From positions 132,896 to 196,895 of IMG/VR virus record IMGVR_UViG_3300037067_013660: a stretch of 64,000 nucleotides of DNA. One strand, 5' to 3'. Position numbers and translations under genes: made by a program. The notes under the pieces are model-generated. The model saw only the letters and a list, made by a program, of their open reading frames with translations. It was not told where the DNA came from and did not search any database. The stretch comes from a virus (lineage: Duplodnaviria; Caudoviricetes). Below, in pieces: positions 36,018 through 62,618 of this stretch (position 1 is the stretch's first letter; each line of letters starts with the position of its first letter).

Positions 36018-37364
36018 CTAAGCTGAACAGGTTTCACCGGGCTTGCGTTCGATCTGGTAGACCAGGCGATCAATGGGTTCGCCCCGCTGGTCCAGTTGGA
36101 AAACGTCGCCCGTAGGATCGATGACGTAGACGCGCTCGGTCTTCAGGTAGTTCTTGAGGGCGTCTTGCTTCCACATCTCTTCGTACTGATCGGCACTCAG
36201 GCAAGTGGTTTGCTGGCCGCCCGGCAGTCCGGGTTTACCCCGGTATTCGAACTTGTAGACGTCGCCCTCGTACTGCAGGACGAACAGGCTTTTGGCTCGC
36301 GCGGCTTTGAATTCCTGTTCCGTCATGGAGCCATCGGTCTCGATGGTTCCGCCAGGCGGCGGGCTGTACTGTGGGTTCGCGGCGTTCTGGCTCAACAGCA
36401 CCAGGTTCACCATCATGGTGAGGGCCTGTTTGAATTTCGCTTCGTCTGGTCCCGTCTCCAACAGCTTGCCGCCGCACAACACAAACCCAGCCGTTACGAA
36501 CTGGACGGCGTTGCTTTGTCCGGCGGTCCGGCGGAACGCCATCAGGATGTGTTCAAATGGTGCGGGTGTCGAGAGCCCCACGACCACGCGGTCTTTATCG
36601 TACGTGAGGATCTGGGCGCCGCCGCTGTACTGCTCGTGCTGCGTCAACTCTATGACCTTTTGCTCCACCAGTTGGCGCGACGGCGTAAAACGACCACGAG
36701 CATTCTGGAAGAACGCGACGAGACGCTGCCAATCCTCGTCCTCCATTTTCTGGAGGATCTTGATCGCCTGCTTCACGACCGTATCGTTACCCAGGGTGTT
36801 GGGCTTTTCCTTCGTCATCGCGTCGGTCAACTTCTTGACGATGTCCTGACGATTTTGCAGATCGAACTCTCCGACCAACGACTCCAACTTCGCCAACACG
36901 GGAGGAAACTGCGTCTCCATCCACTCGATGGCCTGGACGGTATTTTTCTGTTGCTTGCCCGTCAGCTTCGCTTTGTTGGGGTTCGACGGCGTCAACGACG
37001 CCAACGTGCTGAACGACTCCAGCATCGTGACGATGTCGACGGCCGAGGACGCAACGTAACCGACGCGGCACATTTCCGCCACGGCTTCCTGCAGCTTGGG
37101 TTTTTCCCCACCCAAGTTGAAGTCGAACGTCATGAGCATCGGGATACCGAACGGCATGACCAACTGATTCGTTACGTCGATGCCGTCGCCCTCGACCGTT
37201 ATGGCAGGCTTATCCTGTGTCTTCAACTTGTACTTCGCCAGCAATGAAGCTGAACCCTCGACCGCCGCCACTTGTTTGGCTTGTTCGATGGCATCGATGG
37301 CCTTGGGCTTCGTATCAGGTTCCTGCGCCTCACGGTACAGGTGCCCCGCATATTTGATCAGCAT
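36018..37364 (-). CDS. Putative internal head protein
   Basis: Leader MLIKYAGHLYREA; head-module context. Confidence 0.6.
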   Translation of the reverse strand: MLIKYAGHLYREAQEPDTKPKAIDAIEQAKQVAAVEGSASLLAKYKLKTQDKPAITVEGDGIDVTNQLVMPFGIPMLMTFDFNLGGEKPKLQEAVAEMCRVGYVASSAVDIVTMLESFSTLASLTPSNPNKAKLTGKQQKNTVQAIEWMETQFPPVLAKLESLVGEFDLQNRQDIVKKLTDAMTKEKPNTLGNDTVVKQAIKILQKMEDEDWQRLVAFFQNARGRFTPSRQLVEQKVIELTQHEQYSGGAQILTYDKDRVVVGLSTPAPFEHILMAFRRTAGQSNAVQFVTAGFVLCGGKLLETGPDEAKFKQALTMMVNLVLLSQNAANPQYSPPPGGTIETDGSMTEQEFKAARAKSLFVLQYEGDVYKFEYRGKPGLPGGQQTTCLSADQYEEMWKQDALKNYLKTERVYVIDPTGDVFQLDQRGEPIDRLVYQIERKPGETCSA

Positions 37365-37374
37365 GGCGCTACAC

Positions 37375-38163
37375 CTAAACGTAGTGGTTGAGTCGCACGG
37401 CAAACGTATCGACGAGGTCGAGGAACTGGTCGGCCTCGGCCTTGGGCACCACGCCGGTCTCGACCATGAAGCCGTAGAGACAGACCATCTCCGACCGATC
37501 CAGTTGGTTTTGCTGCTGGAACATCAAACCCCAGTCCTCTAGTCGGAGATTCTTGCGGTTGCCCCGCCCCGGCATGTAGGTGTTGCGAACCTTCCAATAG
37601 CCGCGCCAGAAAAGCTCCGTGAGGGCCAGGAGGTCGTCCAGCGGTAGGAGGGCGTCGTCCTGGCTCCAACGCTGTAGTGCGGGCCGTACGGGCACGTAGG
37701 AGTCTCGGTGGTACTGGTCGTTCGGGTTGCCTTCAGCGGCCTGGGGCGCGGGCTCCAGCGCGGGGTAAAGGGCTCGGCGTCGCATGTTGCCTCCATCGTA
37801 GCTGTAGTAGCGCTGCTGCCAGCGGCGCCAGTGGTTCTGGGGTCGCCACGTCACGTCCGTCAGGGTCGAGGGCATGTTGGGATCCCGTGGTCCCCAATAG
37901 GTCGGGAGCACTCGGATGTCATGCAACTCGGGGTTGTGCTGCATGGCGTCTTCGTCGTACCAACCGGATTCAATTTCTGGTCTATCGATCTTCGGTTCCA
38001 TGGCGTACGCGAGGTCATCGAGCGATACCGTGATGGTCTCGTTGGTGTCGACGACTACGAGGTCAACGACGTCGTCCCGTACCTTCACGACGACGGCACC
38101 CTCGTCGCCAAAGTCATGGCCCTCTAGTTCCGAAATGACGTCGCCTTTTTGAAGCTTATCCAT
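37375..38163 (-). CDS. Two-module putative head protein
   Basis: SH3-like acidic N-module, internal MRRRA linker. Confidence 0.6.
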   Translation of the reverse strand: MDKLQKGDVISELEGHDFGDEGAVVVKVRDDVVDLVVVDTNETITVSLDDLAYAMEPKIDRPEIESGWYDEDAMQHNPELHDIRVLPTYWGPRDPNMPSTLTDVTWRPQNHWRRWQQRYYSYDGGNMRRRALYPALEPAPQAAEGNPNDQYHRDSYVPVRPALQRWSQDDALLPLDDLLALTELFWRGYWKVRNTYMPGRGNRKNLRLEDWGLMFQQQNQLDRSEMVCLYGFMVETGVVPKAEADQFLDLVDTFAVRLNHYV

Positions 38164-38202
38164 AACGCCCCTTTGATTGTCGTACGGTGATCGAACGAGA
38201 AA

Positions 38203-38952
38203 CTAATTCAGTCGCCAGTAGACGCCGCTATCAGGAAGGTCACTGAGTTCACCATCGTAGTGACCAAGGAAATGCCCCGCCCCGTCGGTCCTGACGGCAT
38301 CTTTGGCGGCCTCGTCGATGTCGATGCCCCCGAACCGAAGCGCCTGTTTCATGCCTTCTTCTTGTCCGAACATGTCGACCAAGTAGCCGACGGGATCACT
38401 CAACCGCTCCTCTACTTCGCGCTGTACGAAATCGTCGAGGTTTTCGTCGATGGCTTTGCGGAGCAGGTCTTCGTCTACCGCGACGTCGCCGTCCTCGTCC
38501 TCTACCTCGTAGTCCGAAGGATCCAACCCCATGCGTTCCGCCACGTCTTTTGGATCGCGGTCAGCGTCGTACGTCAGATCATTGTAGAGGCTGTCGAATT
38601 CGTCGCTGTAGAGATCGCGACGGATACGGTCCACGTTGATGAAGTTTTCAAGCCAACTTTGAGTGAAAAGCTCTGGTTCTTGCTCCAGGTCCTGCGCCAC
38701 GATCTCGATGGCCAGTTCCTCGGCCGTATCGTAGGAATCGGCCACGGCGAACTCCCGCTGGCCGATCTCCACCTGTACGACGGTTCCGATGCCAGAGGAA
38801 AAACCGTTGAACCCATCGCGCAGTTTAGCACCGTCAGGGTCTTCGTCTTCAACGTCAAAGAACTGTTCCAACGCAGCGGCGAGGGCTTCGCCGTATTCGG
38901 CGGACCACTCGGCCTGCTGCTCGGGAGAAACCTTTTCGGCTTTACGTATCAT
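38203..38952 (-). CDS. Highly acidic putative head cargo protein
   Basis: MIRKA leader; D/E-rich; ends DGAGHFLGHYDG...YWRLN. Confidence 0.65.
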   Translation of the reverse strand: MIRKAEKVSPEQQAEWSAEYGEALAAALEQFFDVEDEDPDGAKLRDGFNGFSSGIGTVVQVEIGQREFAVADSYDTAEELAIEIVAQDLEQEPELFTQSWLENFINVDRIRRDLYSDEFDSLYNDLTYDADRDPKDVAERMGLDPSDYEVEDEDGDVAVDEDLLRKAIDENLDDFVQREVEERLSDPVGYLVDMFGQEEGMKQALRFGGIDIDEAAKDAVRTDGAGHFLGHYDGELSDLPDSGVYWRLN

Positions 38953-38978
38953 TTTACTGCGCTCTCTCTTGCGAGACG

Positions 38979-39245
38979 TTAGGGTTTAACAAAGCCTTGA
39001 ACAACGAGGTCGGGAAAATAATCCAGTACGATGTCCAGGGCTTCGTCGTAAGACGTCGTGATGAAATCTTCCTCGTAGCGTTCCACCCTATGCTCAGCAC
39101 CACGAAATACGTTGTGGAGTTGTCATAGCGTGGTTTTGTAGATCATGTCGATTTCCCAATCGGGATTATCGTATGGATCCGCGTACGGGTGATCGGGCAG
39201 CGGAATCGTCACGAGGAAGAATTTGTCGTTAGAACCAATGACCAT
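38979..39245 (-). pseudogene. Paralogue of 39762-40028 with an in-frame TGA at 39123-39125
   Basis: Same length (267 nt); identical C-terminus DEALDIVLDYFPDLVVQGFVKP. Confidence 0.85.
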
Positions 39246-39271: not shown

Positions 39272-39733
39272 TTAGCGACTTAAATTATTTACAAGTCCCT
39301 CGGCTTCGTCGTTCGCTTCATTCTCAGTTAAATACCAACCTTCTAAATTTTCGTCTGAGGAACCACCAACCAGCTCTGTTATCGAAATGACGGCCCATAG
39401 TTTAGTTACTGGTTCTTCTACGATCCACACTGACCACATATTACCTTCTGCACTTTCACTTTCAGCTACTTGGTAAGAGGTATTCAGGTTCAACAAAATG
39501 TTAACGTTAAGGTCGTCGATATAATCTGCTACGATGCCAGAGTGAGGTTCATACGTGCGTTTCAGATCGCATTTGGTACAGACTGAAGTATGATAAACGC
39601 CTCCACCGTGTCCCCAAACTCCGGGGTTCTCTTTTATACCACCAATCAGTTCATAATCATTGCTCCAGCGATGTGTTTCGCCATCAACGCATTTTGGCTC
39701 GTCTGGGTTCAGTACGGCGGCTTTACGTATCAT
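39272..39733 (-). CDS. Putative head cargo protein (AT-rich module)
   Basis: MIRKA leader and upstream sequence shared with 38203-38952; KENPGVWGHGGG. Confidence 0.65.
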   Translation of the reverse strand: MIRKAAVLNPDEPKCVDGETHRWSNDYELIGGIKENPGVWGHGGGVYHTSVCTKCDLKRTYEPHSGIVADYIDDLNVNILLNLNTSYQVAESESAEGNMWSVWIVEEPVTKLWAVISITELVGGSSDENLEGWYLTENEANDEAEGLVNNLSR

Positions 39734-39761
39734 TTTACTGCGCTCTCTCTCTTGCGAGACG

Positions 39762-40028
39762 TTAGGGTTTAACAAAGCCTTGAACAACGAGGTCGGGAAA
39801 ATAATCCAGTACGATGTCCAGGGCTTCGTCGTAGGACGTCGTAATGAATTCCTCTTCGTAGCGGTCGTACGCTACCAAGGTACCACGATGAATCCGGCGT
39901 AACTGCGGCATCGTTACCTCGGCGATCATGTCGATTTCCCAGTCGGGATTATCGTACGGATCCGCGTAGGGGTGGCCTGGGAATGGAATCGTTACGAGGA
40001 AGAATTTGTCGTTGGGTCCTATTACCAT
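39762..40028 (-). CDS. Small acidic hypothetical protein
   Basis: GAGGT RBS; duplicated. Confidence 0.7.
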   Translation of the reverse strand: MVIGPNDKFFLVTIPFPGHPYADPYDNPDWEIDMIAEVTMPQLRRIHRGTLVAYDRYEEEFITTSYDEALDIVLDYFPDLVVQGFVKP

Positions 40029-40168: not shown

Positions 40169-40858
40169 TTAACCAAAAGATGGTAAAAAGACGTATGAAT
40201 CTTTGTTGACGATCACATCGGGTATTACGTACTTTGCGTTAGCCGTGATGCCTTCTTGCCATACGTAGATTCTTACCCACCTGGCTTCGTCTGCTTCGCC
40301 CCAATAACACTCGTCTACGCATTTTTGCGCTGCTTCTTTTCCGGAGTTTGCCTGCTCGTAAAAAATTACTTCTTCACCACCATCAGCGTACCAACCAGGC
40401 AATACGACGACAGTTCCATTGTTTGCTGTTTTGAGGTCTAGGTCTTTAGCTATCTGTACCGCAGGTTCTCCGGCTTCCAAGCGTTCCGCTATAACAACAT
40501 CAAGTTGTTGGCTTGGATAATTAGCTGTTCGCATGTCCTCGTCTCCTTCGGGTATCAAGACGTCGGCGTCCTCGGGCACTTCATCCTGCATGGGCGGCCA
40601 GAGGCGGTCGTACTCTTGGTGCAGTAGTTCGGTAGCATCTTCCTCACCAGGAACCTTCAGACTACAGATGCACGTGTGGACTGTTGAGCCGTCCTCCAGC
40701 TTGACCTCGATGGCCGGTGGCTCTAACTGCCACTCGCCGTTGTATTCGGCGGCGTTCAACGTGATGTTGGTGATGACGCCGACGCCGTCGTCGGTCTCGA
40801 CCTCGTCACCTATTCCCAACAGGCGTTCCGTGGTGTCGGCGTTTTCGACTATCGGCAT
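40169..40858 (-). CDS. Modular acidic protein
   Basis: Internal MRTA and LKTA linkers; last module resembles 59801-60145. Confidence 0.6.
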   Translation of the reverse strand: MPIVENADTTERLLGIGDEVETDDGVGVITNITLNAAEYNGEWQLEPPAIEVKLEDGSTVHTCICSLKVPGEEDATELLHQEYDRLWPPMQDEVPEDADVLIPEGDEDMRTANYPSQQLDVVIAERLEAGEPAVQIAKDLDLKTANNGTVVVLPGWYADGGEEVIFYEQANSGKEAAQKCVDECYWGEADEARWVRIYVWQEGITANAKYVIPDVIVNKDSYVFLPSFG

Positions 40859-40860
40859 CG

Positions 40861-41403
40861 TTATTCTCGGGAGGCCCGCGCCACGATGGCGTCGTAATCA
40901 GCGAGCAGTTGGGGGTCGTTCGTTAGGTTCGCTAAGTGCTGTCGGATCGCGGGATCGAATCCGTGGACCTTCAGTAATTCGGCGACGTCGGCGTGGTCTT
41001 TCAAACGGCCTGCCAGTAACTTCAAATAGACCAACCCTTCGAGCGTCGGCAAATTAGGAGCCGCTGGATCCCGCACGACCGAAGGATCTGGATTTCGATC
41101 TTTGCCCTCGGTCAGCACGTCGACCTGTACGTTGGGGTTGAAACGTTTCAACATCTCGAATTTGATCACGCCGTCCGCAACCAAACGGTCGTAGTCGGCC
41201 CGAGGGATCAGGATGTCGATGTCTTCGGTCAGCCGTACGTAGCCGTGGTGCTGAACCGCCAGGCCGCCGACCAACACGGGATCGACGTGGTGCCGCGCCA
41301 TGAACTTGACCAGGGCCTCAAAGTCGCGCCACAACTTCGCCACGGCCTTGCGAAACGAGACGCGGCCAATACGGTGAGCCCAATGGCGATTCCAGAAGTC
41401 CAT
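40861..41403 (-). CDS. Nucleotidyltransferase (Pol-beta superfamily, DUF6036-like)
   Basis: VLVGGLAVQHHGYVRLTEDIDILI...LKLLAGRLKDHAD. Confidence 0.8.
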   Translation of the reverse strand: MDFWNRHWAHRIGRVSFRKAVAKLWRDFEALVKFMARHHVDPVLVGGLAVQHHGYVRLTEDIDILIPRADYDRLVADGVIKFEMLKRFNPNVQVDVLTEGKDRNPDPSVVRDPAAPNLPTLEGLVYLKLLAGRLKDHADVAELLKVHGFDPAIRQHLANLTNDPQLLADYDAIVARASRE

Positions 41404-41434: not shown

Positions 41435-44317
41435 TCAATATGGTCCATGTTGAGCTGGTAGGGGCGCCGCGTCGTCTTCCATCATGCCTTCTAGTTCGTC
41501 CTGGTCGATGAAATAAGCGAGACCGTAGGACCCATCGCCCTCGTGGTTTCCGAGATACAGAACACCAGGCAGATTTTGCTGCTGCATTACTTCGCGGATC
41601 TTGCCGTCCACCTCGTCCTGCACACTCATGATATGATCAAAATCCCAACCACCTTCCACGGCTTCAATCCACTCAGGATCCTCACGATCAATGTTAAGAG
41701 CGTCAGCATAATCCTCGGGGCGTCCCGACGCCGACATAATGGTTTCGGCCCAGTATTCGTAGCCGTTGTCGTGGTTAAAGTAATTGTCGGGATCCGCTAG
41801 GATCTCGTTCAGGCATTCTTTTACGATGCCGGGAATAACGTCGAGGTTGAAGCCACGGAAGGTTTCGGCTTTACGTCGCATTGTCTTGGCCTTTCTGGTC
41901 TTGGCGTAAGCGGGCCAGCGGTCGTCACCGCTGCCGTAGTCACCATCGTACGCGGGGGTTTCGTCGATGGCGTCGTGCTGTTCCATGTGCCCATCGGGGT
42001 ACACGACGTATTCGCCGTCGTCGTCCACCAGCAGGACAGGAGTGCCTCGTCGTGCTGCTTCTTGTTCTGCCGTCTGGATGGCTTCGTCGCTCATGACGGA
42101 ACCCTGCAGACCATCGGCGATGACGTCGCCGGTTTCGTAACAGTAGAGAGCGGCGGCTTGACGCCGTATAATGCCAGCACCTCTAGTAATGCGTTGTTCG
42201 ATAGCTTCAGCATCGTCAATCATTTGTTGATCCAAAATATTATAACTCAATGGAACGGCGCGATTTGGTAACGTAGCGATAGAGAAACCAGAAGGAGCAT
42301 TATCAGAATTCTGGATGACCCAGACGGTACCGTCGGACGCTACGTAAAATGTTTCAATCTCTGTACCGTAAAAACTGGTTTCGGCTTGACGCCGCATCTT
42401 GGCTTTACGCACTTTGGCGGTCGTCAGCATCTCGCAGTACGACATCAAGGATTTGACCAACGTATCGTCCACCACGCCATTGCTATCGACGCCTTGGACG
42501 AACCAGTTGTCTTTCTTCTTCTCGAACGTCGTGACGTCCTGGTCCGTGAACTTCGCACCAATGATTTGCTCCACGCACTTGGTGGGAAGCTGGACTTTGT
42601 TGTCGGACGTCCGTTTGCGCTGGCCGCAGCCGCAACCCTTTTGAGCCGCTGCCTTCTGTGTTGCCGCGATGCGGCCCCACGAGGAAACGCGCTCGCCCCA
42701 CACGGCCTCTTCCTGCTGGGCCTTGTCGTCGGCTGGGAAGTTGAACAGCTTCTTGAAAAACTGCTTGACCTTGGAATCGACCTTCGGCTTTTGCTTCTTT
42801 TGCTTCGCGGGCTTCTGTCCCGTGGGCTTCTGCTTGGCCGGCGATTTGTACTGCTGCTGCGTCATCTGCATGGCGGGGGCGCGGGCGTCTCGATCCTGTG
42901 CCTCGACGTACTCGGCACCCTTGTACTTGATCTTCATGTCGGTATCCTTTTGAGGCTGCGTTGTCGCGACCTTGAGTTTCTTGGCCAGGGAACCACAGAA
43001 GGCACCGGGGTCGTCTACTTTGCCTTCCATCTTTTTCATGCACGCTTTGATCTTGTGTTTGCGGTCGCCCGTCAGACCGTCCCAGAACTTTTCTACGGAC
43101 TTCTTGGTCCAGCCGTCGGGCAGATCGGACCACGCGGCGGAAGACCGCACGTCGGCCGTACGCGCGTCATGTCTGTTCTTGTACTGCTTACCTTTACGCC
43201 TGGAAGTCATGAACTTAACTTCCCCGTGGATAGTATCGGGATCATCGGCGTAACCATACGTCCTGATTTTGATGGGATAGCCGTGATCCGTAACCAAGGT
43301 TCTGTACGAAGCCGTGCCGCCAGATTCAAGTTCACGCCCACCGCCATGCTGGTGATCTACCCTAGTGGTCGGTACGTGCAGTAGCACGAGATCCGTGAGT
43401 TGGTCGGCCAACCCGTCGGCCGTATAATCACCAACGACATTTATGTTTACACGAAACGCGCCACCAGACGATCCAACTGGCCCACTTACCGAAAACCTGT
43501 CGCCGGCTTTTCTGGAAAATTCGGGGCGAATCGCTTTGGAAAACGCCATCGACATTTCAGACGGCGAAACAAATGAATCGTTTGCCTTACGAGTCTTGGT
43601 ACTGGCGGCTTTTTGTTCGGCCTGCGGTTCGTCGTCCGTGGCTTTCTGTGGGGCGTCGGGCATCTCTTTCTTCAGGAACGCGACGATGCCGTCAAACGCC
43701 TTTTTGATCATGGGGGCCGCTTGCTTTTTCAAACCCTGGAGCGTCTGGTCGACGTCCGCCTCTTTGCCGATGACCGACATCAAGGCTTCGACGTGCCCCT
43801 TAGCCTTTTGTAGCGAATCACTCTTGACTCCTAGGGCAGTGCGGAGCCCGTCGTCCGTCACGAAATACGCGAGGCCCGCGAGCGCCTGCATGAACGTCGG
43901 GTCCTTCGAGAACTCGGTGGTGTCAACCTTGTGCATCGACATCAGGGCCTTGTCCATCAGTTGGATGACGGCATTCCACACCGTCTTGAACAAGTACTGC
44001 GAGGTCTTGGGGCTAACGTCTTCGTCGCCGCCGATCGCCTTCACGACGTCCGTGGCCCACACGGGATCGTATAGTTTCTGAATCGCGGCTTCCGGCACTT
44101 CGGCAAGACGGACGTAGTGGCGCATTGTACTTCCTTGGTGCTTGTGGTATTGCACCGATTTTTCGTGCTGCTGGGCCAATTCTTTCGTCGGCCCCGAGAA
44201 CAAGAGTTTCGATTCGTCGTGGTCCCAGAGACACCACGTTTGCTTGACCTTGGGGTATTTCCTGCCCGAAGCCTTGTCCTGCGGACGGCACTTCTTGATG
44301 ACGGCGTAGTGTTTCAT
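41435..44317 (-). CDS. 960-aa modular (polyprotein-like) putative internal head protein
   Basis: Roughly eight dissimilar modules separated by basic linkers ending R/K-x-A. Confidence 0.7.
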   Translation of the reverse strand: MKHYAVIKKCRPQDKASGRKYPKVKQTWCLWDHDESKLLFSGPTKELAQQHEKSVQYHKHQGSTMRHYVRLAEVPEAAIQKLYDPVWATDVVKAIGGDEDVSPKTSQYLFKTVWNAVIQLMDKALMSMHKVDTTEFSKDPTFMQALAGLAYFVTDDGLRTALGVKSDSLQKAKGHVEALMSVIGKEADVDQTLQGLKKQAAPMIKKAFDGIVAFLKKEMPDAPQKATDDEPQAEQKAASTKTRKANDSFVSPSEMSMAFSKAIRPEFSRKAGDRFSVSGPVGSSGGAFRVNINVVGDYTADGLADQLTDLVLLHVPTTRVDHQHGGGRELESGGTASYRTLVTDHGYPIKIRTYGYADDPDTIHGEVKFMTSRRKGKQYKNRHDARTADVRSSAAWSDLPDGWTKKSVEKFWDGLTGDRKHKIKACMKKMEGKVDDPGAFCGSLAKKLKVATTQPQKDTDMKIKYKGAEYVEAQDRDARAPAMQMTQQQYKSPAKQKPTGQKPAKQKKQKPKVDSKVKQFFKKLFNFPADDKAQQEEAVWGERVSSWGRIAATQKAAAQKGCGCGQRKRTSDNKVQLPTKCVEQIIGAKFTDQDVTTFEKKKDNWFVQGVDSNGVVDDTLVKSLMSYCEMLTTAKVRKAKMRRQAETSFYGTEIETFYVASDGTVWVIQNSDNAPSGFSIATLPNRAVPLSYNILDQQMIDDAEAIEQRITRGAGIIRRQAAALYCYETGDVIADGLQGSVMSDEAIQTAEQEAARRGTPVLLVDDDGEYVVYPDGHMEQHDAIDETPAYDGDYGSGDDRWPAYAKTRKAKTMRRKAETFRGFNLDVIPGIVKECLNEILADPDNYFNHDNGYEYWAETIMSASGRPEDYADALNIDREDPEWIEAVEGGWDFDHIMSVQDEVDGKIREVMQQQNLPGVLYLGNHEGDGSYGLAYFIDQDELEGMMEDDAAPLPAQHGPY

Positions 44318-44699: not shown

Positions 44700-44939
44700 C
44701 TAGTACTTGTTGTCGATCATGTGCATGGCGTCGGAAATCTCGCGGTACAGCTCCTGTACGAACCGATCAATGCCGTCGAGCTTCTGGAGTTTATCGGTGC
44801 GCTTGATCCTCGTCTTGATGGCTTTGATGGCGCCGAGCAAACCAGAGCGGCACGCCGCGTCGTTGGCGCGTTCAACGGCACGAGCGTAGCCATCGGTGCT
44901 GAGGGCCTCGCGGTACATATGTCCTGCGTACTTGATCAT
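44700..44939 (-). CDS. Small putative head protein
   Basis: Leader MIKYAGHMYREA. Confidence 0.65.
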   Translation of the reverse strand: MIKYAGHMYREALSTDGYARAVERANDAACRSGLLGAIKAIKTRIKRTDKLQKLDGIDRFVQELYREISDAMHMIDNKY

Positions 44940-44953: not shown

Positions 44954-46069
44954 TTAGCCAACCAAAATCATGCCTTGGGCTTCTGGATCAAAACCCACGG
45001 GGAATCGAGTGGCACGATTATACTGAGCCTTCTGTAGCTTCGCACCTCGTAGGTCTGCGGTCTGCAGGTTAGTGTGTAGTAAATTCGTCTTTTTCATATT
45101 CGCGGCCTTCAGGTTTACATTCGTCAATACGGCCATTCGTAAGTTCACATCTCGTAAATCAGCTCCCTGTAGGTCCACGTTTTCTAAACTCGCACCTCCT
45201 AGATTAGCGCCCCGCAAATTAATATTGTACAGGGCTAGGTTTTCCATCCGCGCTCCCAGTAAATTTGCCCCACATAAGTCAGTACCCTGTAGCTTTGTAT
45301 TGAATAAAAATGCTTCTTGTAGATTTGCCTTGGACAAATCGGCGCCCTGCAGATTTGTTTCATACAAATTCGCTGATCTCAAATCTGCTTCTTGCAGACC
45401 TACGCCCTGTAGGTCTGCTGCTTGTAGGTCTATGCTCTGTAGTCTTGCGCCGCGTAGATCTACTTTTTCACTGTGCTGTTGGTACCAAGCGTTCCATTCA
45501 GCGACGCTCCGTCGCAGTAAAATAATTTGATCGAAGCGCGTGAACTGTTCGGCATCATAACTGTCGGCTAGTCGGTAAACCCTACCTTGGTAACGAATGG
45601 TCCTCATGGCGTTGCCTTTTACGGCCGCCGCCTTGGCGGGCGTCTCGACTTTGGTCCCGACGTCATCCTGCGTCGTATCTTTTGGTTTCGTCACGACGGT
45701 CTTGTCGCCTGGGTTAGTCTGACGTCGCTGTTTTGTTTCTTGCTTACCCCACCATTGAACCGCAGCCGTGTAGATGGCTTTCTGGAGAATGCCCTCCAGT
45801 GCGTACAGTAGGTTGACTGAGCCCTTGGGAATGTCCCAAGTACCAAGGTGTTGGTTTTCCCACAGCAACGCGATGAGGTCGTCGGGCGCCAATCGAGAAA
45901 CGTCTGGTTTTATCTTTTTGAAGGCGTCGTCGGCCGACGTACCTGCGTCTATGGTTGCTTGGATCTTTTCGACGTACTGGTTGACGTAGCGTCGGAGTTT
46001 ATCGCTGACGGTCGTGTCGACCTTCTTGCCTGGCTCGACCAACCGCATATAGGCTTTTGTTCGTCGCAT
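44954..46069 (-). CDS. Modular protein with C-terminal pentapeptide repeats
   Basis: MRRTKA leader; internal MRTIRYQGRVYRLA; A(D/N)Lxx repeats. Confidence 0.85.
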   Translation of the reverse strand: MRRTKAYMRLVEPGKKVDTTVSDKLRRYVNQYVEKIQATIDAGTSADDAFKKIKPDVSRLAPDDLIALLWENQHLGTWDIPKGSVNLLYALEGILQKAIYTAAVQWWGKQETKQRRQTNPGDKTVVTKPKDTTQDDVGTKVETPAKAAAVKGNAMRTIRYQGRVYRLADSYDAEQFTRFDQIILLRRSVAEWNAWYQQHSEKVDLRGARLQSIDLQAADLQGVGLQEADLRSANLYETNLQGADLSKANLQEAFLFNTKLQGTDLCGANLLGARMENLALYNINLRGANLGGASLENVDLQGADLRDVNLRMAVLTNVNLKAANMKKTNLLHTNLQTADLRGAKLQKAQYNRATRFPVGFDPEAQGMILVG

Positions 46070-46086: not shown

Positions 46087-46983
46087 TCAGATGCGGTACA
46101 AATACCGCCTAAGCACATGATTAAGTTCTCGTGTGTGTTCAATCAATACCTTGGTTTTATCCTCAAGCGTATATAGATTATCCAGTAACGCGTTTATGTC
46201 TTTTTTAGAAGACCAATCCAACAGACCGTTGTCGCCGACGTAGTGATGAGACAGGTCATCAAGCTGTCGACCCAGATTCTGTGCCATCCTGTATTCTGCG
46301 ATGTCGTCTAGATCTACGGTGGTGAAATCAATCTTCGCCGCAGGTCTAAACTTACTGGTGGCATTCCTGTGCGCCTCTGTGTTGGGGTGTACCCTGATCC
46401 AAGGAGCGTACACCAAGTCCCATGCGGGTCCCAGCGCCTTGATGATGCGGCGTTTCAGACTACGGAATTCCGACGCAAGTTCCGTTGTTGTGTGGATCTC
46501 GCGCACGGCAAAGCTGTTGATGATGGCGAGGACGGCGTCGCGTTCCGCGTCCGTCAGGTCGGCCTCCAGGTCGTTGTAGAACATCATGAACCACTCGAGC
46601 GAACCGTGGGCCGCCGCGCGGGCCGTGTCGTAGGTTTCTTCGTAGCCATAGTCGTCCGTCATGACAACGTTATCTCGGTAATGTGGCATCGCGATCGCAT
46701 TCCTTAACTCTGGGGTTCTCTCGCCGTCGAACTCTTGTTCCATGGCGTCCAACATGACGTAGTAGTCCGGGTCTTCCATCAGGTGGGCCCACGCGATCTG
46801 GGCAGTGGCGCCCAAGGCATCATCCGTGACGTTGACGCGCTCGTCCATCTTGGTGCCGTGCTCCAACTCCACGTCCATACCGGCGGCCAGGTCCTCGGGC
46901 GTGAACGCTACGTCGTCCCAACGGATCCCGATGGCCTCGCCGACGTCGGCCGCTTCCTCGGGCGTAAAGGCTGTGCGCCGCAT
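46087..46983 (-). CDS. Modular protein with N-terminal DUF5661-like domain
   Basis: MRRTA leader; GMDVELEHG...AQIAWAHLMEDPDYY. Confidence 0.7.
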   Translation of the reverse strand: MRRTAFTPEEAADVGEAIGIRWDDVAFTPEDLAAGMDVELEHGTKMDERVNVTDDALGATAQIAWAHLMEDPDYYVMLDAMEQEFDGERTPELRNAIAMPHYRDNVVMTDDYGYEETYDTARAAAHGSLEWFMMFYNDLEADLTDAERDAVLAIINSFAVREIHTTTELASEFRSLKRRIIKALGPAWDLVYAPWIRVHPNTEAHRNATSKFRPAAKIDFTTVDLDDIAEYRMAQNLGRQLDDLSHHYVGDNGLLDWSSKKDINALLDNLYTLEDKTKVLIEHTRELNHVLRRYLYRI

Positions 46984-56227: not shown

Positions 56228-56716
56228 TTAGCAATCCAGTGGTGCACCACAGCCACGACACGACGTTTCGTCGCCGCGCGGAGTGGTGCCACAGTATACA
56301 CAATCACACTTGGTTTCGTTCGTCAAGATGATGGGCATGTTCTCGGTATTGAGCTTGACCTTCATCTCCAGAAACCACGGCTTGCCTTGAAACTGTAGGC
56401 GGCGGGCCGTGTCGATGTGCATGGTGGTGGCGACGCCGTTGAACGTCACGGGTACGACGGCACCGGGTTGAATTTTGAACGCCTGCTGGTGCTGGTTTAC
56501 CCCAGGCTTGACGGTGTTGAGGTACTTCCAGAAGGGCGAGCCATACCGATGCGCCAGGTTGGTGGCGGCGCGGCGTAATTGGCCACGCGACACGCACGGA
56601 TCCACCCTAATGCCTAGCGCTCGTGCTTCTCGCTTGAGTAAACCGAACTCGGCAGGCGTTGTCGCGCCGCCGCGTGGCCAAATAGCAAGCAACCGACCGA
56701 GAGCGTGCGGGTTCAT
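56228..56716 (-). CDS. Hypothetical protein with C-terminal Zn ribbon
   Basis: CVYCG...CRGCGAPL. Confidence 0.55.
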   Translation of the reverse strand: MNPHALGRLLAIWPRGGATTPAEFGLLKREARALGIRVDPCVSRGQLRRAATNLAHRYGSPFWKYLNTVKPGVNQHQQAFKIQPGAVVPVTFNGVATTMHIDTARRLQFQGKPWFLEMKVKLNTENMPIILTNETKCDCVYCGTTPRGDETSCRGCGAPLDC

Positions 56717-56718: not shown

Positions 56719-57072
56719 TTAGATGTTCCTCAGTTTCTGCCCGGACTTCGCCAAATATTTGACGGGTCCGTCTCGGCGGATTGCGTTTAACTCTTGGGTG
56801 AACATCTGGGTTTTGCCCGCCGCCTTCTGCACCAACTTGGGTAGTAACTGCATCAGGGTTTTGACGTCGTACTTCTGCATGTCGTCCGCTTCCCTGATGC
56901 CCGACTGTACCAAGATGTAGGCGAACCCAATCATCACGGCGTCGGCCAGGATTTCCAGGTGGGCGTCCGTGACCTTCAGGAGCTTGGGGTCCGGTACCGC
57001 GCCTTTACCCGGCTTCGTCACGAGGCCGTCGTCAGCCCGTCGGTACAGTGCAGATTTGTAGTGCAGCATCAT
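56719..57072 (-). CDS. Small putative head protein
   Basis: Leader MMLHYKSALYRRA. Confidence 0.6.
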   Translation of the reverse strand: MMLHYKSALYRRADDGLVTKPGKGAVPDPKLLKVTDAHLEILADAVMIGFAYILVQSGIREADDMQKYDVKTLMQLLPKLVQKAAGKTQMFTQELNAIRRDGPVKYLAKSGQKLRNI

Positions 57073-58127
57073 CGATGCCGGGACGTGCGGGTAAAGCGAC
57101 GAGGAGAAACGTGCGGGCGGCGGTATCCGGGTCGTGCCCCCAGCTCAATCTCCGGTACCTCGACGTCCTCCAGATCTAATTCTGGGACTTCCTCGACGTC
57201 CTCTTCCGTCGCCTCGTCTTCGGCCACAGGCTCGACTTCCTCTTCCTCCACGACGTCCACTTCATCGACGTCCTGCTCCCCGACCTCCAGAACCTCGTCG
57301 CCCTCGTCCGATTGAATGTACGCAGCCGTCAGGCTGCTGACGTGATCTTCCAGTGCGCCCGCCACTTCGTCGAGCCCGTAGTGCGTAACGTCCTCGACGA
57401 TCTCGGCGGACCACTCGCGGATGTGCTCGCGCGATTCCTTGACGCCCCGGTTACCCAACTCGTCCTTGACGACTTGGTTGAGTCCGTTGAATCCGTCCTC
57501 GAACTTTTCCAGCAACATCTCCTTCATCGACAGGATGACCTCGCCGTAAATGTCGGGACCGAATTGATCGAACAGATCGGCCAACGCGTCGCCCATGCGC
57601 CGACGAAGCGTACCCGATACTTGACCGGGCTGATGACTCTCGTCACTACCCTGGGCCTTTTTCCTTGCCATGATGCGTCGCATTGCTTTTTCTCGTTTCT
57701 GTCGGGCCGCTCGACGGGCCGCTATATTTAGGTTGATGACGATTTGTTTCTGTCCAGATTCAACCGGGACCGTAATGCTCTCGGCTGTTGGTTCTTCTGC
57801 CGCAACCTCTGGTTCTGCTTCTCCCGTCTCTAGCGTCTGCTCGAACTCGTCGCACAGCAGTTCTGCCGCCATGTACTCGACGTCCTGCGGGAACGTCTGT
57901 TGTCGTACGCCTCCCATTTCTTCCGCATAATTAGCGACCGCTTCTTTGACGACCGTCATGAAGATGCGAACGGCGGCACGACGATCGTACATGCCGCGAG
58001 CCTGCTGGTAGGCCAAGTTTTCCTTGGTGTTGTCGAGCAGCTCTTGGAACTCCGGGTGCTTGTGGATCCAGAAAACGATCTCCTTCGCCACATCTTCGGG
58101 GGTGTTGAAAAAACCGCGTCTTCGCAT
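57069..58127 (-). CDS. Modular acidic protein (scaffold/core-like)
   Basis: N-module paralogous to 60142-60882; basic linker AARRAARQKREKAMRRIMARKKA; E/D-rich tail. Confidence 0.65.
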   Translation of the reverse strand: MRRRGFFNTPEDVAKEIVFWIHKHPEFQELLDNTKENLAYQQARGMYDRRAAVRIFMTVVKEAVANYAEEMGGVRQQTFPQDVEYMAAELLCDEFEQTLETGEAEPEVAAEEPTAESITVPVESGQKQIVINLNIAARRAARQKREKAMRRIMARKKAQGSDESHQPGQVSGTLRRRMGDALADLFDQFGPDIYGEVILSMKEMLLEKFEDGFNGLNQVVKDELGNRGVKESREHIREWSAEIVEDVTHYGLDEVAGALEDHVSSLTAAYIQSDEGDEVLEVGEQDVDEVDVVEEEEVEPVAEDEATEEDVEEVPELDLEDVEVPEIELGARPGYRRPHVSPRRFTRTSRHR

Positions 58128-58231: not shown

Positions 58232-58825
58232 TTAATCGACGCGGACGTACAGCTTGCCGTCACGCTTGTTGCGGATGTACTTGGGGGCGGCGTCGCGCTT
58301 GGTCGCGGCCTTCTTGGCCACGGGGCGTCGACGGGCTACCGGGCGAGCAGGGCGCTCGTCCTCATCAACGGGACGCCGACGGGTAGCGGCACGTCGCCGC
58401 ATGGCCGCGAGCCGCTGCTCCCGGCGCCGCTCGGTCTCCAGGCGCTCCCGCAGGGCCGCCAGGCGCTCCTCACGACGCTGGTCGATGTCGCGGAGGTCCG
58501 ACCTGCGGGCCACGCGGTCGAGGGGCCTACGGGCCACAGGACGCCGCTCAGCCACACGCTCGCGCAGGGGACGACGACCCACGGGGCGGTTCCGCAGGGG
58601 TCGAGGAGCCGCCACACGCTCGCGCAGGGGGCGTCGCGCCACGGGGCGCTCTTCCTCCTGCTCGGCTCGCCGCAACTGCGCCTTCAGGGACGCGATGCGC
58701 CGTCGTAGACCGTCAAGGCGGTCGTCGTCACGGGCGAACCGATCCTTGCGGATGGAATTGCGTCGGGCCGTCGCGACGCGGTCGGCCAAACGCCGACGCT
58801 GGGGCCTGTTGTTTCTCCGGATCAT
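58232..58825 (-). CDS. Arg-rich protamine/histone-like protein
   Basis: GAGGAG RBS; repeated RPVARRPLRERVA; ends KYIRNKRDGKLYVRVD. Confidence 0.75.
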   Translation of the reverse strand: MIRRNNRPQRRRLADRVATARRNSIRKDRFARDDDRLDGLRRRIASLKAQLRRAEQEEERPVARRPLRERVAAPRPLRNRPVGRRPLRERVAERRPVARRPLDRVARRSDLRDIDQRREERLAALRERLETERRREQRLAAMRRRAATRRRPVDEDERPARPVARRRPVAKKAATKRDAAPKYIRNKRDGKLYVRVD

Positions 58826-58886: not shown

Positions 58887-59204
58887 TTAGTATGGTAAGC
58901 CTCTACGTAACTTAGCTAAGTGTGTGGACATGTCTTCTAGATAATCGTTCAACGAACTAACGGCCTCTTTTCCTGCTGGAGTTAACTTATTCTTTGAACT
59001 AGAATAGGAAGCATAGGGTTCGCCTTCAAAGAAAATAGGCCACTCACGAGTTGATAGTGCATCAGCAAGTACGTCCTCTATACTGTCTTGGGCGGCAGCA
59101 AGCATTTCGTAATCGGGTTTACCTCGGCGGATCCAACCATCAAGAATTCGGATCACCACCCTGTCGATTGCCGCTTGTGTTCTCTCTCTCTCTCTCTCGC
59201 TCAT
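58887..59204 (-). CDS. Cassette-like small protein
   Basis: GAGGAG RBS; starts MSERERER (GA tract). Confidence 0.6.
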   Translation of the reverse strand: MSERERERTQAAIDRVVIRILDGWIRRGKPDYEMLAAAQDSIEDVLADALSTREWPIFFEGEPYASYSSSKNKLTPAGKEAVSSLNDYLEDMSTHLAKLRRGLPY

Positions 59205-59249: not shown

Positions 59250-59561
59250 TTATTCATCAGCCAATATCAAAGTTGGATCTCCATCAACTTCGATCAGTAC
59301 GTCTCCTGCGTCAGCACCAACAACTTTGTACTCAATGTCGGACAGCATCGGAGATCCCGTAAGTAGCGTACTCAGTAAATCCAAAAACGACTCCAAGTCG
59401 CCGTCGATAATGTCGTTTAGATCAACCGCAACGACGCCACTACATTGCCCCATTTCGTAGAGCTGTCTTTCCATTTGCTGTCTAGTCAGTGTGCCTGCCG
59501 GCACTGTTTCGGCCTGTCTGAGTTGCTGCTGCAAATACCTTACTCTCTCTCTCTCTCTCAT
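59250..59561 (-). CDS. Cassette-like small acidic protein
   Basis: GAGGAG RBS; starts MRERERVRYLQQQLRQA. Confidence 0.6.
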   Translation of the reverse strand: MRERERVRYLQQQLRQAETVPAGTLTRQQMERQLYEMGQCSGVVAVDLNDIIDGDLESFLDLLSTLLTGSPMLSDIEYKVVGADAGDVLIEVDGDPTLILADE

Positions 59562-59565: not shown

Positions 59566-59790
59566 TTACTCCTCATAGGATTGGTGTTGGTAGGGTGGAT
59601 CATCCAGTTGATGTCCGTGGTTCATGACGATGGTTTCGAGCGCGAGGATGTGGTCAACGGCTTCGGCCCATTCGTCGAAAACGAATTCCAAGTCAAACGC
59701 GTCATCTACGGCGTGCAATAACGCATAGACGGCGTCGATGGCGGCTTGCTGCTTGGGACCATAGGCCGATGCTGTTCGTCGATAGCGCAT
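59566..59790 (-). CDS. Small acidic protein
   Basis: AAGGA RBS; MRYRRTA leader. Confidence 0.6.
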   Translation of the reverse strand: MRYRRTASAYGPKQQAAIDAVYALLHAVDDAFDLEFVFDEWAEAVDHILALETIVMNHGHQLDDPPYQHQSYEE

Positions 59791-59800: not shown

Positions 59801-60145
59801 TTACGGTTCAATATCATATTGTAGTTCTTGCTCATCAAGGACATCTTCGTCATCGGCACCCATACGCCACACCCGTACCGTCACGGTGCCCAGAGGCCCA
59901 AACTCTGGATCGTAATGCTTTCGCCCGAAGTCGAAAGCGTCGATGAACATTTGACCGGCTTCGTCGGCCGACCTAGCCTCGGGGAAATGCAGGGTGTCGT
60001 CACCATCCGACGCATACCATCCCTGCTGTGCCATCAAACTGGTGGCGACGCGATAATGCCGCTCCGCTTGTCGGATCTGCTGTCTAAGATATTGGATGCG
60101 GTTCATGTCGTGGCTCCTGCTGGTTTCGTACTCGTCTACGCTCAA
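59801..60145 (-). CDS. Small acidic protein
   Basis: AGGAG before MNRIQYLRQQIRQA; YRVA linker. Confidence 0.6.
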   Translation of the reverse strand: MSVDEYETSRSHDMNRIQYLRQQIRQAERHYRVATSLMAQQGWYASDGDDTLHFPEARSADEAGQMFIDAFDFGRKHYDPEFGPLGTVTVRVWRMGADDEDVLDEQELQYDIEP

Positions 60146-60882
60146 CGATCTAACTGGTAGCCAAGATCGCGAACAATGCGATTAAACTGATTAAGTAAAC
60201 TGTAGGCTTCGTCCCATTCATTTATTGCTTTGCCTTCAAAAACCACGTCTAGTATGTCGTAGATGGTGCGGATAGCGTCGCGAACGCTGGTTTCGTTTGG
60301 ACCCGAACGAAACGCCCGGCGCACGCCGGCACCACGACGCTTATCGTACTCCAAATCGTCGCGATAATCTGCTGCTGACTGATCCAAAATTTCGATCACC
60401 TCGTCTGCCGTAAGGGTAGGATCCCACGTGAGTACTGCCGCGATAGCGTCGCCCGCCGCGAGATCTGGACGACTGAGGCTAACTTCCTCTGCGACATCCT
60501 TTGGGTATACCGCTGCCCCGCGCTGGGGGTACCGCTCGCGCCACTTATCAACGTCCTTTTTGAAAACGTGTTTCTCAAAGCTCTCGGGCGCGGCGCCTAC
60601 CTCGGCCATGAATTCGTCGCGCAGCATTTCAGCGGCCATGCGCCGGATCTCGATGGGGAAGTTCTGGTGCCACGTTCCACCGAATTCCTTGGAGTAGGAT
60701 TTGGCGCCTGCTTCCGTCGCCCACATGAATCCCTTGACGGCCAACTCGGGATCGAATTTGTCTTGCGCTAGCTTGCGCGTCATGTTGCGCCAAATCGATT
60801 CTAAATGGCGGTGCGTTGGGTAGTCATTGTTGATCCACAGGACCAATTCTTCGGCGGTGTCGAAGCCACTAAAACGTCTCAT
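60142..60882 (-). CDS. Three-module putative head cargo protein
   Basis: MRRFS leader; AEELVLWINND...AGAKSYSKEFG module; VRRA linker. Confidence 0.65.
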   Translation of the reverse strand: MRRFSGFDTAEELVLWINNDYPTHRHLESIWRNMTRKLAQDKFDPELAVKGFMWATEAGAKSYSKEFGGTWHQNFPIEIRRMAAEMLRDEFMAEVGAAPESFEKHVFKKDVDKWRERYPQRGAAVYPKDVAEEVSLSRPDLAAGDAIAAVLTWDPTLTADEVIEILDQSAADYRDDLEYDKRRGAGVRRAFRSGPNETSVRDAIRTIYDILDVVFEGKAINEWDEAYSLLNQFNRIVRDLGYQLDR

Positions 60883-61285
60883 GATACTGCTCTCTCTCTC
60901 TCTCTCTCTCTGGGCAACCAGAGCGTTGTTGTGGAGATTCGTCAATAACGTCGATCTGAAACTTGCTTGGCCGTGCGGAAAAATTGTGCCATCTGATTAC
61001 TCAGTTGCATGCACGCGTAAATAGACCCATCCTGAAAAAGATTAGTGCGGTCTACGTCTTCGCCCCGTAGGTTTAGCCACGCCTGTAAGGTCCAAGGGTC
61101 GTCCACCAGGGCTTCGATATCCTGCACGGATCCGCAGTCTATTGTTTGCATAAGCTCCAAGAGGGTCTTCAGGGCATTGTTCAGTGCCTCGACGCCCCTT
61201 GGTGCCGTGGTGTTCGTCGTAGATCGGCATGGGTGTTTCGCCTTTTGCGGTACAGCACCGGGAGGCTCGCTGGTTGCCCAGCGCG

Positions 61286-61804
61286 TTAGTCCAACTGGTC
61301 TAGGATTTCTTGGGGCACGTCAAAGAACTGGATCTCGGCGTCCAGCAGCCCGTATCCAAATTTACTAAGACCGGTCAACAATTTTTCAGCCTCGGCGTAC
61401 GGAAGATGTTCGAGCATCCTGATGGACTCAAAGGTACCCTGGTGTATCCATTCCATCTGTTCAGTATCGGTTGGATCAAACCAGAAGGTACCGATCAATT
61501 CTTCTCCATCGTGTCCGCCGTGCCCTTCGTCCAGCGCGTTATCAAAGGTCTTGCGAAGCCACGCTAAACAGTTGCGCTCCAGACGTAAAGAGTCATCCGT
61601 CAATACGTCCCAACCTTTTCGCGTAATACCATCGCCTTCAATCAGTCCCTGTTGTTCCCACTCACGCAAAGTATCGACAAAATCGTCTTCTGGGTAGTTA
61701 ACACGATCAGACAAATTATCCTCAATCGTACCAGACGATGTCGTCAGAATAGCAAACCCAGCACTTATGTCTCGCTCCCTCACAGGTGTGTCGTGCTCTC
61801 GCAT
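61286..61804 (-). CDS. Acidic hypothetical protein
   Basis: AGGAG RBS. Confidence 0.6.
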   Translation of the reverse strand: MREHDTPVRERDISAGFAILTTSSGTIEDNLSDRVNYPEDDFVDTLREWEQQGLIEGDGITRKGWDVLTDDSLRLERNCLAWLRKTFDNALDEGHGGHDGEELIGTFWFDPTDTEQMEWIHQGTFESIRMLEHLPYAEAEKLLTGLSKFGYGLLDAEIQFFDVPQEILDQLD

Positions 61805-61829
61805 GATCTTGCTCCTAGGTAGAACTCGG

Positions 61830-62618
61830 TTAGAAATTCAGGAAATAATCGCTCAACGCTACGGTGTAGGCCGGGTCAGCGACACTGCTCGACTCGACGT
61901 ATACGAATTTTCTAAGCAACTCGTAAATCAGGTGACCGTCGATGACGTCGCCCTTGCCCGTACCTTTGGCGATGTGTTGGCACGTCGTAACGCCGTCGCT
62001 CAGGTAACGGCAGCTCGGCGAACTACACTCCGTCTGCTCGACCAACGCGCCCATCGAGTGACCGACGCGGTTTTTCTTTTGCACCAGGTCCGCGAGTTTC
62101 TTGTCCTTGGACCGATCAAAACCCTTCAGGATCTTGACGTGCCAGCGCCCGCGAAACGATACCAACGTAGCGTCGAAGATCACGCCCTTGGCCTTGGCGT
62201 CGTCCTGGTTGTCGTGGTCCTGGTGCACCGGCTTGCCAATAAAACTAGCGTAACTCGGCCGACCTACTGAAGTTCGCCACGCCGTCAATTCCTCGTATGG
62301 AAAAGCGTCGAGGTTTCGATTTGGATACGAGGCCACGACGATCGGTACCTCGACCAGCACGTAGTCGTGGATGTCGGGGCTGATGTGGTATTGTTCAGCC
62401 GCGAACGGTAGCCAATCAATTTCCAAACGACCGCACGCACACGCGTCCAGTCCGTCGCCCATGGCCACGTCTTTGCCCGCGACCTTGAGTTTGTCGAGGC
62501 GATATCCGTGCACGACTTTCGGGGCTTTGTCGATGACGTTGTCTCGATCAATCGTCTGCGCCAGCATGTAGTCGCCGACGTGGACACCCGGACCATATTT
62601 GACGATGGGGTGGCGCAA
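61830..62618 (-). CDS. Prohead (capsid maturation) protease
   Basis: PNRNLDAF...FIGKPVHQDH.N...AKGVIFDA...HSMGA...C..C...C.H...ESSSVADPA (His/Ser motifs of phage head proteases). Confidence 0.85.
   Translation of the reverse strand: MRHPIVKYGPGVHVGDYMLAQTIDRDNVIDKAPKVVHGYRLDKLKVAGKDVAMGDGLDACACGRLEIDWLPFAAEQYHISPDIHDYVLVEVPIVVASYPNRNLDAFPYEELTAWRTSVGRPSYASFIGKPVHQDHDNQDDAKAKGVIFDATLVSFRGRWHVKILKGFDRSKDKKLADLVQKKNRVGHSMGALVEQTECSSPSCRYLSDGVTTCQHIAKGTGKGDVIDGHLIYELLRKFVYVESSSVADPAYTVALSDYFLNF

Follow-up and report, generated by a model that had tools for sequence, protein, structure and literature searches.

Basic tags ending in arginine-x-alanine mark a candidate head-cargo system in an uncultured huge phage

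Why do the genes that surround a phage's protease and capsid genes encode so many otherwise dissimilar, mostly acidic products that begin with, or contain at their internal joints, a short basic motif that ends in alanine? The genes in question lie between positions 36,018 and 62,618 of a 64,000-nucleotide stretch (hereafter the window) at the end of one viral contig of 196,895 bp (IMG/VR record IMGVR_UViG_3300037067_013660, positions 132,896 to 196,895) from an uncultured phage. Of all phage products, those packaged in the head meet the host cell first, and in T4 and phiKZ-type phages they include anti-restriction and takeover factors. A first-pass annotation of the window had proposed that R/K-x-A is a packaging or cleavage signal for an expandable library of domains that are carried in the head, cut free and injected, for example as anti-defence or DNA-mimic effectors. 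We find that R-x-A is a real signal: it is present and enriched, specific to the head-gene region, coincident with protein starts and module boundaries, and conserved across the clade. We estimate at roughly 55% the probability that these tags act as loading and cutting signals for head-packed proteins.

An R-x-A motif recurs throughout the head-gene region

The minus strand carries nearly all window genes, and the features described below are on that strand unless stated otherwise. Every motif listed in the first-pass annotation was found at the place given. After curation of gene starts by ribosome-binding sites, the N-terminal leaders comprise MIRKA (starts at 38952 and 39733), MRRTA (46983), MRRTKA (46069) and MRYRRTA (59790), all of which had been predicted, together with MRRFS (60882), MIRRNN...RRRLA (58825) and MRRRG (58127). 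The remaining motifs are internal to their genes: MRRRA (at M127 of 37375-38163), MRTA and LKTA (40169-40858), FRKA (40861-41403), YRTA (48138-49466), YRVA (59801-60106) and VRRA (60142-60882), and about 12 copies in a 960-residue open reading frame (ORF) at 41435-44317. Both MIRKA leaders are present as claimed, but they are not independent, since they lie within a tandem duplication of ~310 bp (38937-39245 and 39718-40028, 86-100 % identity). A gene for 88 residues, a spacer and a GA tract make up the repeated unit, together with the first 16 nt of the MIRKA leader; the bodies that follow the two copies are unrelated, and the small gene is broken in one copy.

We enumerated all tripeptide patterns of the forms abc and a.c (474 patterns) in the 36-63 kb genes with correction for composition. 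MRR ranked 1st (9 observed versus 0.9 expected), RKA 2nd (11 versus 2.1), R.A 4th (71 versus 43.9) and RTA 5th (10 versus 2.3). A lack of enrichment over early genes had been named beforehand as grounds for refuting the proposed signal; the other 193 genes of the same genome have no excess of R.A (286 versus 287.8). The arginine part of the R/K-x-A proposal was thus upheld, whereas the lysine part was not (K.A, 35 versus 34.2). Internal copies of R[RKTQ]A, assessed by within-protein shuffles, number 26 versus 10.6±2.9 in the region and 70 versus 64.8 outside it, with shuffle z values of 5.4 in the window region and 6.2 in the relative G001 (see below). Basic N-terminal starts were found in 15/36 region genes versus 26/193 elsewhere (p=2e-4), and [RK].A within the first eight residues is weakly enriched (7/36 versus 15/193, p=0.04). 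Without composition correction, a k-mer comparison of the region against the rest picked up mainly acidic patterns and missed the motif. The acidity of the domains themselves was borne out, with a median net charge of -5.8 per 100 residues in the region versus 0.0 in the rest (p=4e-6).

The last residue of the motif can also be Gly or Ser, as in MRRFS·GFD and MRRRG·FF (a raised dot marks the end of the motif), and the position behind the motif Ala varies among E, A, F, N, Q, S, T, L, D and Y. A T4-type motif ending in Glu was ruled out, as there is no conserved Glu around the motif Ala or at the capsid site.

A GA tract (GAGAGAGAG..CAGTA) lies immediately upstream of leader-gene starts (5 matches versus 0.28 expected), with sites at 60885-60900, 39736-39751, 38955-38970 and about 48129-48140. 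Similar tracts precede some leaders in G001. The tract may be an unusual ribosome-binding or late-regulatory element.

Relatives carry the basic tag and a second, hairpin-like tag

A scan of IMG/VR with the protease sequence gave five contigs with proteases 48-70 % identical to that of the window, and a contig from ENA encodes a protease 82 % identical to it; a scan of IMG/VR with the capsid protein gave no relative. The five IMG/VR contigs and the ENA contig all carry tags, at guanine-plus-cytosine (GC) contents of 39-55 %. More than 100 protease homologues were detected, on contigs of up to 365 kb.

The most distant relative, G001, has a GC content of 39 % versus 55 % for the window, and 27 kb separate its protease and capsid genes. 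About 20 of its genes start with leaders such as MLRRHRRRRRLAA, MLRRRRRRMAA, MLKRRRRRVAA, MRRRRRFALA and MRKRRQA. At least three R/K among residues 2-8 occur in 21/43 head-region genes of G001 versus 0/24 outside (p=8e-6), and internal R[RKTQ]A is found 33 times versus 12.2±3.3 in within-protein shuffles. The Arg codons of the G001 leaders are mixed, and selection therefore acts at the protein level.

Just upstream of the G001 protease, gene 7956-9794 (L005 numbering) encodes 612 residues in which poly-Arg blocks alternate with long poly-Glu/Asp. The blocks end in A or F (RRRRRA·QEDDE, RRRRRRF·SEDK, DRRRKA·EEDEDE). We consider it a candidate scaffold whose basic and acidic elements could self-associate. 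Proteins of 543 residues annotated as 'ATPase' stand in the scaffold position of phiRSL1 (ORF134, L006 3927-5555) and Motura (gp186, L007 5078-6706); they start with MAIGTRKKRVLAAK and MAKTRVIAGVAKQKKFKVAAA, respectively, which are basic leaders with an Ala-Ala end. No homology was found between the phiRSL1 protein and the scaffold-like product of 57069-58127 in the window.

A second tag has the pattern KYxGxxY[RKV]x[AV] and occurs at N-termini (MIKYAGHMYREA, MLIKYAGHLYREA) and internally (MKIKYKGAEYVEA, MRTIRYQGRVYRLA). We counted 19 matches, nine of them N-terminal, in the head-region and polyprotein set (52 k residues) and 0 matches in 50.6 k residues of the remaining genome. From the sequences that precede homologous modules, this hairpin-like tag, KYxGxxYREA, is interchangeable with the basic tag. 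The C-terminal ETFRGFNL... module is preceded by MRRKA· in the window, by MNKTA· in a free 146-residue protein, by MRRTA· and TRTA· in two polyproteins and by ...GALYREA· in a fifth protein. Both tag types thus precede this one module, and both end in [RK]-x-A.

Motifs coincide with module boundaries

Module comparison by BLAST and by HMMER, the latter run in full against 1.8 billion representatives, yielded ten module families. Members of each stand behind a tag at the N-terminus in some proteins and directly behind an R-x-A motif within a longer sequence in others. The free gene 59566-59790, which has an AAGGA ribosome-binding site at its start, encodes a 74-residue acidic protein with the leader MRYRRTA·S and is equivalent to the C-module of 60142-60882, where it follows VRRA·F. 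The first module of the 960-residue ORF begins as MKHYA·VIKKC in the window, as MKRTA·VIIPC or MRRCA·NIKEC in other proteins and without a leader as M·TIKRC, and it stands inside a G001 protein as RRPRIA·TIKPC. The same module is thus free with a leader in one phage and in a polyprotein behind the motif in another, which agrees with the idea of an expandable library.

The 960-residue ORF (41435-44317) is a polyprotein of about seven modules. Its joints are RLA (44102-44110), RKA (43583-43591), RTA (43154-43162), a hairpin tag (42899-42937), RKAKMRRQA (42383-42409) and RKAKTMRRKA (41867-41896). The AlphaFold2 (AF2) model has a mean predicted local distance difference test score (pLDDT) of 67 with low-confidence linkers between domains, and confident domains at residues 1-61, 73-222, 250-372, 393-450, 572-648, 743-780 and 817-954. 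Motif Ala 72, 245, 388 and 817 sit 0-5 residues ahead of 4/6 internal domain starts in the model, for which we estimate a chance of coincidence of ~4e-4. The module limits from HMMER agree with the AF2 domains. No family in Pfam, PHROG or NCBIfam was assigned to any of eight pieces of the ORF.

One of these modules, the W..LPKGWT...DPGAFC domain (42938-43159, residues 387-460), is helical, spans ~60 residues and has 579 representative matches in viral metagenomes. It has no Pfam or PHROG family, and the ESM Atlas gave only unnamed viral clusters. Its usual upstream context is [KR]-x-A-x-x. Among 140 copies of the domain, [RK]-x-A ends 1-4 residues ahead of it in 70 %, versus 9 % in control windows, as would be expected of the proposed signal. 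The genomic contexts of two proteins with this domain were uninformative.

In-frame AAGGAG, GGAGG or AAAGG tracts precede the internal M65, M461 and M813 of the 960-residue ORF. Because internal Met-leaders are preceded by in-frame AAGGAG/GGAGG tracts, many joints appear to have arisen by fusion of leader-bearing cistrons.

The protease and the capsid protein

The head maturation protease gene (61830-62618) matches PHROG 18299, 'head maturation protease' (E 1e-46). No Pfam or NCBIfam family was found at E<=0.01, including T4 gp21-type and HK97-type models, and sequence searches of the PDB were empty. The protease is assigned at the fold level only, because PHROG 18299 was its sole sequence match. 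Its AF2 model (pLDDT 85.7) has T4 gp21 as the best Foldseek match, followed by herpesvirus proteases. Superposition on T4 gp21 (5jbl_A) gave Z 10.1 and a root-mean-square deviation of 2.6 Å over 130 aligned residues (VIA), and herpesvirus proteases gave Z 7-9.5. The predicted fold is thus of the gp21/assemblin type. H135, S188 (in GHSMG) and E242, among them candidates for the catalytic His and Ser, are invariant across 47 homologues. Herpesvirus assemblins cleave after Ala (V/L-x-A·S), so Ala at P1 has a precedent within this fold. The prohead proteases of T4-type phages, phiKZ and SPN3US cleave after Glu (PMC9026906, PMC10052503). A literature search found no cleavage data for the phiRSL1/PaBG group.

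We assign 49566-50660, which encodes 364 residues, as the HK97-fold major capsid protein on the basis of its profile matches (PHROG 2522, E 3e-35; phage G gp27, 6wkk, E 6e-15, hhalign probability 97.5 %). The first-pass annotation had placed MERTA at the N-terminus of this protein; it is in fact residues 64-68 of the ORF, and 52 capsid homologues align over the full length from residue 1. The N-terminus of phage G gp27 aligns to window residue about 69-71, so the window capsid protein has an extension of ~68 residues that ends in R66-T67-A68 (50457-50465), with A68·Q69 as a candidate maturation site. Trimming of gp27 itself was judged by gene length (282 residues) versus chain length (280) alone.

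The capsid protein and the protease are 27-38 % identical (tblastn) to those of phiRSL1, Lu11, PaBG, BcepSauron, Motura and Erwinia/Dickeya phages. These similarities make the window part of a huge-phage genome with a capsid protein and a protease that are distant relatives of the phiRSL1 ones. About 3 kb separates the protease gene from the capsid gene in phiRSL1 and Motura, with the tail sheath gene shortly beyond. In the window, 11 kb lie between the two genes, and another 14 kb of orphan genes lie beyond the capsid gene. CheckV completeness of the 196,895-bp record is ~56 % and a portal homologue was not found on the contig, so the head module continues past the contig end.

Tagged genes and their neighbourhood

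The tagged protein bodies do not match one another except for five local paralogue links. For nearly every cargo protein, searches of Pfam, PHROG and NCBIfam yielded no family, and megablast of 20 kb against GenBank phages gave no match.

Between the protease and capsid genes, 60142-60882 encodes a two-module protein with the leader MRRFS·GFD and the internal motif VRRA·F at residues 187-190; its N-module is found internally in G001 after RRRRR·GGFD. The acidic protein of 59801-60106 has IRQA·E and YRVA·T near its start, and its residues 23-62 match residues 149-188 of 40169-40858, where they come after LKTA·N. Another acidic protein (59250-59561) starts with MRERER... and continues to LRQA·E, and its gene has 55 nt of upstream and start sequence in common with 58887-59204. 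The product of 58232-58825 is Arg-rich and basic (net +40), with MIRRNNRPQRRRLA·D and repeated RVA/RLA; it has an orthologue in L016, and its C-terminus matches L003_11609. The scaffold-like protein of 57069-58127 has two modules, the leader MRRRG·FF, a very acidic tail and an internal MRRIMARKKA·Q (57654-57683). The module behind this internal motif is equivalent to the start of a G001 gene product that begins with MARKTKTTLRKA·A (the match to its N-terminus covers window-protein residues 153-277), and the module is found between the protease and capsid gene in all relatives. In 56228-56716, LRRA·A at residues 47-50 stands ahead of a conserved module, and the homologue in L002 begins at the point where the window protein continues past RRA. 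The context gene 51053-51850 encodes an untagged virion structural protein (PHROG 16710, E 2e-19) and adjoins the capsid gene also in the relatives, phiRSL1 and Motura.

Beyond the capsid gene, 48138-49466 encodes a 442-residue acidic protein that starts with MRSQQLGPEY and contains YRTA·G; its N-module recurs at internal positions elsewhere, behind DRKRKA·G in a G001 gene product and behind SRTGA·T in P0019. An acidic protein that starts with MRNFRK (47748-48125) has a GA tract upstream. The leader MRRTA·F precedes a DUF5661 protein (46087-46983; Pfam PF18905, E 2e-13) whose G001 homologue is leaderless and begins directly at the DUF5661 domain. The product of 44954-46069 has the leader MRRTKA·Y, a type also seen in G001 gene 24310, and an internal hairpin tag MRTIRYQGRVYRLA·D (45566-45607) ahead of a C-terminal pentapeptide-repeat domain of NCBIfam Alr5209 type (122.6 bits versus a cut-off of 125). 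Pentapeptide repeats are the only recognisable family or fold among the cargo modules. The nearest families are the cyanobacterial Alr5209 and HetL, which may point to a host among the cyanobacteria and to a fold of the DNA-mimic type. The 79-residue protein of 44700-44939 carries the hairpin tag MIKYAGHMYREA·L, and its N-terminus is paralogous to that of 36018-37364.

Downstream of the polyprotein gene, 40861-41403 contains FRKA internally, and the acidic protein of 40169-40858 contains MRTA·N (40523-40534) and LKTA·N (40424-40432), with an in-frame AAGGAG before M109. MIRKA·A, in the duplicated leader cassette, opens the acidic protein of 39272-39733, and MIRKA·E opens the very acidic protein of 38203-38952 (net -46). 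In 37375-38163, MRRRA·L is internal (37771-37785) with an in-frame GGAGG before M127. The 448-residue protein of 36018-37364 carries the hairpin tag MLIKYAGHLYREA·Q and an internal FRRTA·G, and its N-terminus matches that of L001 gene 4629.

An IscB-like ORF (52295-53641) stands among the head genes, with a PLMP motif, a RuvC-I motif and an HNH domain (PHROG HNH, E 1e-49). An IS200/IS605 TnpA+TnpB pair lies at 13428-15109. At the extreme contig end (63291-64000), overlapping ORFs on both strands contain GQTSEGQTS-type and pentapeptide-like repeats.

Discussion

We propose that the genes around the protease and the capsid gene encode head-internal proteins, namely scaffold or core components and mostly acidic cargo modules whose repertoire can change. 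Each would be addressed by a short N-terminal tag. Two interchangeable tags would serve this role: an Arg-rich run (M-R-R-x-A in the window, extended in relatives to as much as M-L-R-R-R-R-R-R-x-A-A) or the hairpin-like K-Y-x-G-x-x-Y-R-E-A, both ending in Arg/Lys-x-Ala or another small residue. Through its tag, the protein would dock in the procapsid core as the core assembles, and the very acidic scaffold tails are a plausible docking site. Electrostatic docking is suggested because the tags are Arg-rich and the scaffold-like tails (57069-58127 and its homologues; G001 gene 7956) are extremely acidic. The assemblin-fold protease would then cut after the small residue and so remove leaders, split polyprotein modules and release the 68-residue N-terminal piece of the capsid protein. 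Later, the cargo may be ejected into the host.

Tags of this kind could also be permanent, uncut anchors. Arginine tails would then bind packaged DNA or acidic partners and balance charge, and R-x-A would be just the end of the tail, with no part for the protease. The runs of 5-7 consecutive Arg in relatives, far beyond the need of a cleavage site, fit this explanation, as do the strongly acidic protein bodies and the lack of the motif in the G001 capsid protein. It accounts poorly for the hairpin tag, which is not basic yet shares the R-E-A ending and takes the place of the basic tag ahead of one and the same module, for leaderless homologues that begin exactly where the Ala ends, and for unrelated modules chained with the motif at each joint. 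We consider permanent anchoring unlikely. We regard as somewhat less likely again an origin at the DNA level, in which internal Met-Arg-Arg-x-Ala sequences are gene-fusion scars or working internal starts, and leaders spread as DNA cassettes by recombination with no protein-level signal. The ribosome-binding-like tracts ahead of five internal Met codons (M65, M461 and M813 in the 960-residue ORF, M109 in 40169-40858 and M127 in 37375-38163) point this way, as do the 33-nt identical leader cassettes, the 310-bp duplication and the GA tracts upstream of starts. Yet Met is absent from many joints (TRKA·N, RTA·D, VRRA·F, LKTA·N and LRRA·A here; TERKA·A and TQRKA·E in relatives), most leaders differ in DNA, and the tag is kept at both 39 % and 55 % GC with mixed codons. 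A chance or compositional effect of proteins rich in Arg and Ala, encoded at 55 % GC, would fit the weak enrichment of [RK].A in the first eight residues, the lack of enrichment of K.A and the dominance of acidic raw k-mers. It is refuted by ranks 1, 2, 4 and 5 of 474 with no excess elsewhere in the genome and by replication of the enrichment in an independent 39 % GC relative, and we give it almost no credence.

Several observations weigh against loading and cutting signals. The capsid motif is the weakest link of the argument: the column at residues 66-68 reads RTA, REA, RQA, RVA, KKA or KVA in about 9/23 closest homologues, others often have [RK]-E-P-V-[VT]-A, and in a distant group to which G001 belongs the column lacks a basic residue. 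A test of BLAST breakpoints was moderately positive (44 versus 30.2±5.0 for 136 breakpoints), and several R-x-A lie inside predicted helices or domains, e.g., at residues 161, 200, 207 and 271 of the 960-residue ORF. The fixed distance between the motif and the W..LPKGWT domain means that the motif could belong to that domain, and the ribosome-binding-like tracts kept before internal Met-leaders may mark some joints as relics of gene fusion or as internal starts. Some members of the set, such as the products of 57069-58127 and 58232-58825, resemble scaffold or core proteins rather than effectors. Our literature search found no proteomics for the window phage or its relatives.

Cleavable head tags have well-studied counterparts. 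In T4, IPI-III and Alt carry a capsid targeting sequence, a 10-residue amphipathic peptide that is cut after L/I-x-Glu in processing by gp21 (PMC9026906). The window resembles T4 in having a short N-terminal tag on otherwise unrelated head-linked proteins, a cargo set that varies among relatives, a tag that ends at the protease motif (here a candidate motif) and the same protease fold. It differs in that its tags are Arg-rich or KYxGxxYREA, end in Arg-x-Ala and have no sequence homology to T4; its cargo is mostly acidic, unlike the basic internal proteins of T4; many of its modules are chained into polyproteins; and its system is predicted from sequence. In phiKZ, 201phi2-1 and SPN3US, head and ejection proteins are processed by gp175/gp245, and proteases of this type cut after S/A/G-x-Glu or A-x-Glu to remove propeptides that are often 100-250 residues long (PMC10052503, PMC5694885). 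Common to these giant phages and, by prediction, the window are N-terminal propeptides on many head proteins, a gp21-like protease and one short motif found also on the capsid protein. The window lineage is instead phiRSL1-like by capsid and protease, and no PHROG or Pfam link was found from window proteins to head proteins of phiKZ, 201phi2-1 or SPN3US. With the herpesvirus assemblins, whose maturation and release sites read V/L/I-x-Ala·Ser, the likeness lies in the protease fold and, as predicted here, in a small Ala at P1, a defined P3 and a cut that frees scaffold from the capsid interior. There P3 is hydrophobic, whereas here it is Arg/Lys and P1=Ala is the predicted site; herpesviruses have neither a cargo library nor polyprotein chains.

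To our knowledge, a head-cargo address combined with a cleavage code is known only for Glu-specific proteases, and our literature search found no paper describing Arg-rich or R-x-A tags. We therefore raise the tentative possibility, at a little short of even odds, of an undescribed head-cargo code in a large clade of uncultured huge phages, in which two tags and an R-x-A cut with a herpesvirus-like P1=Ala would allow any domain to be loaded and released. The leaders of the 'ATPase' proteins would make it testable in the cultured phages phiRSL1 and Motura. If true, it would supply a very short, portable tag with which foreign proteins could be loaded into capsids, and it would constitute a new specificity class of prohead protease and place phage prohead proteases closer to herpesvirus assemblins in specificity. 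For this large group of uncultured huge phages, it would make virion cargo predictable from sequence and would explain the long chains of unrelated orphan domains in their genomes.

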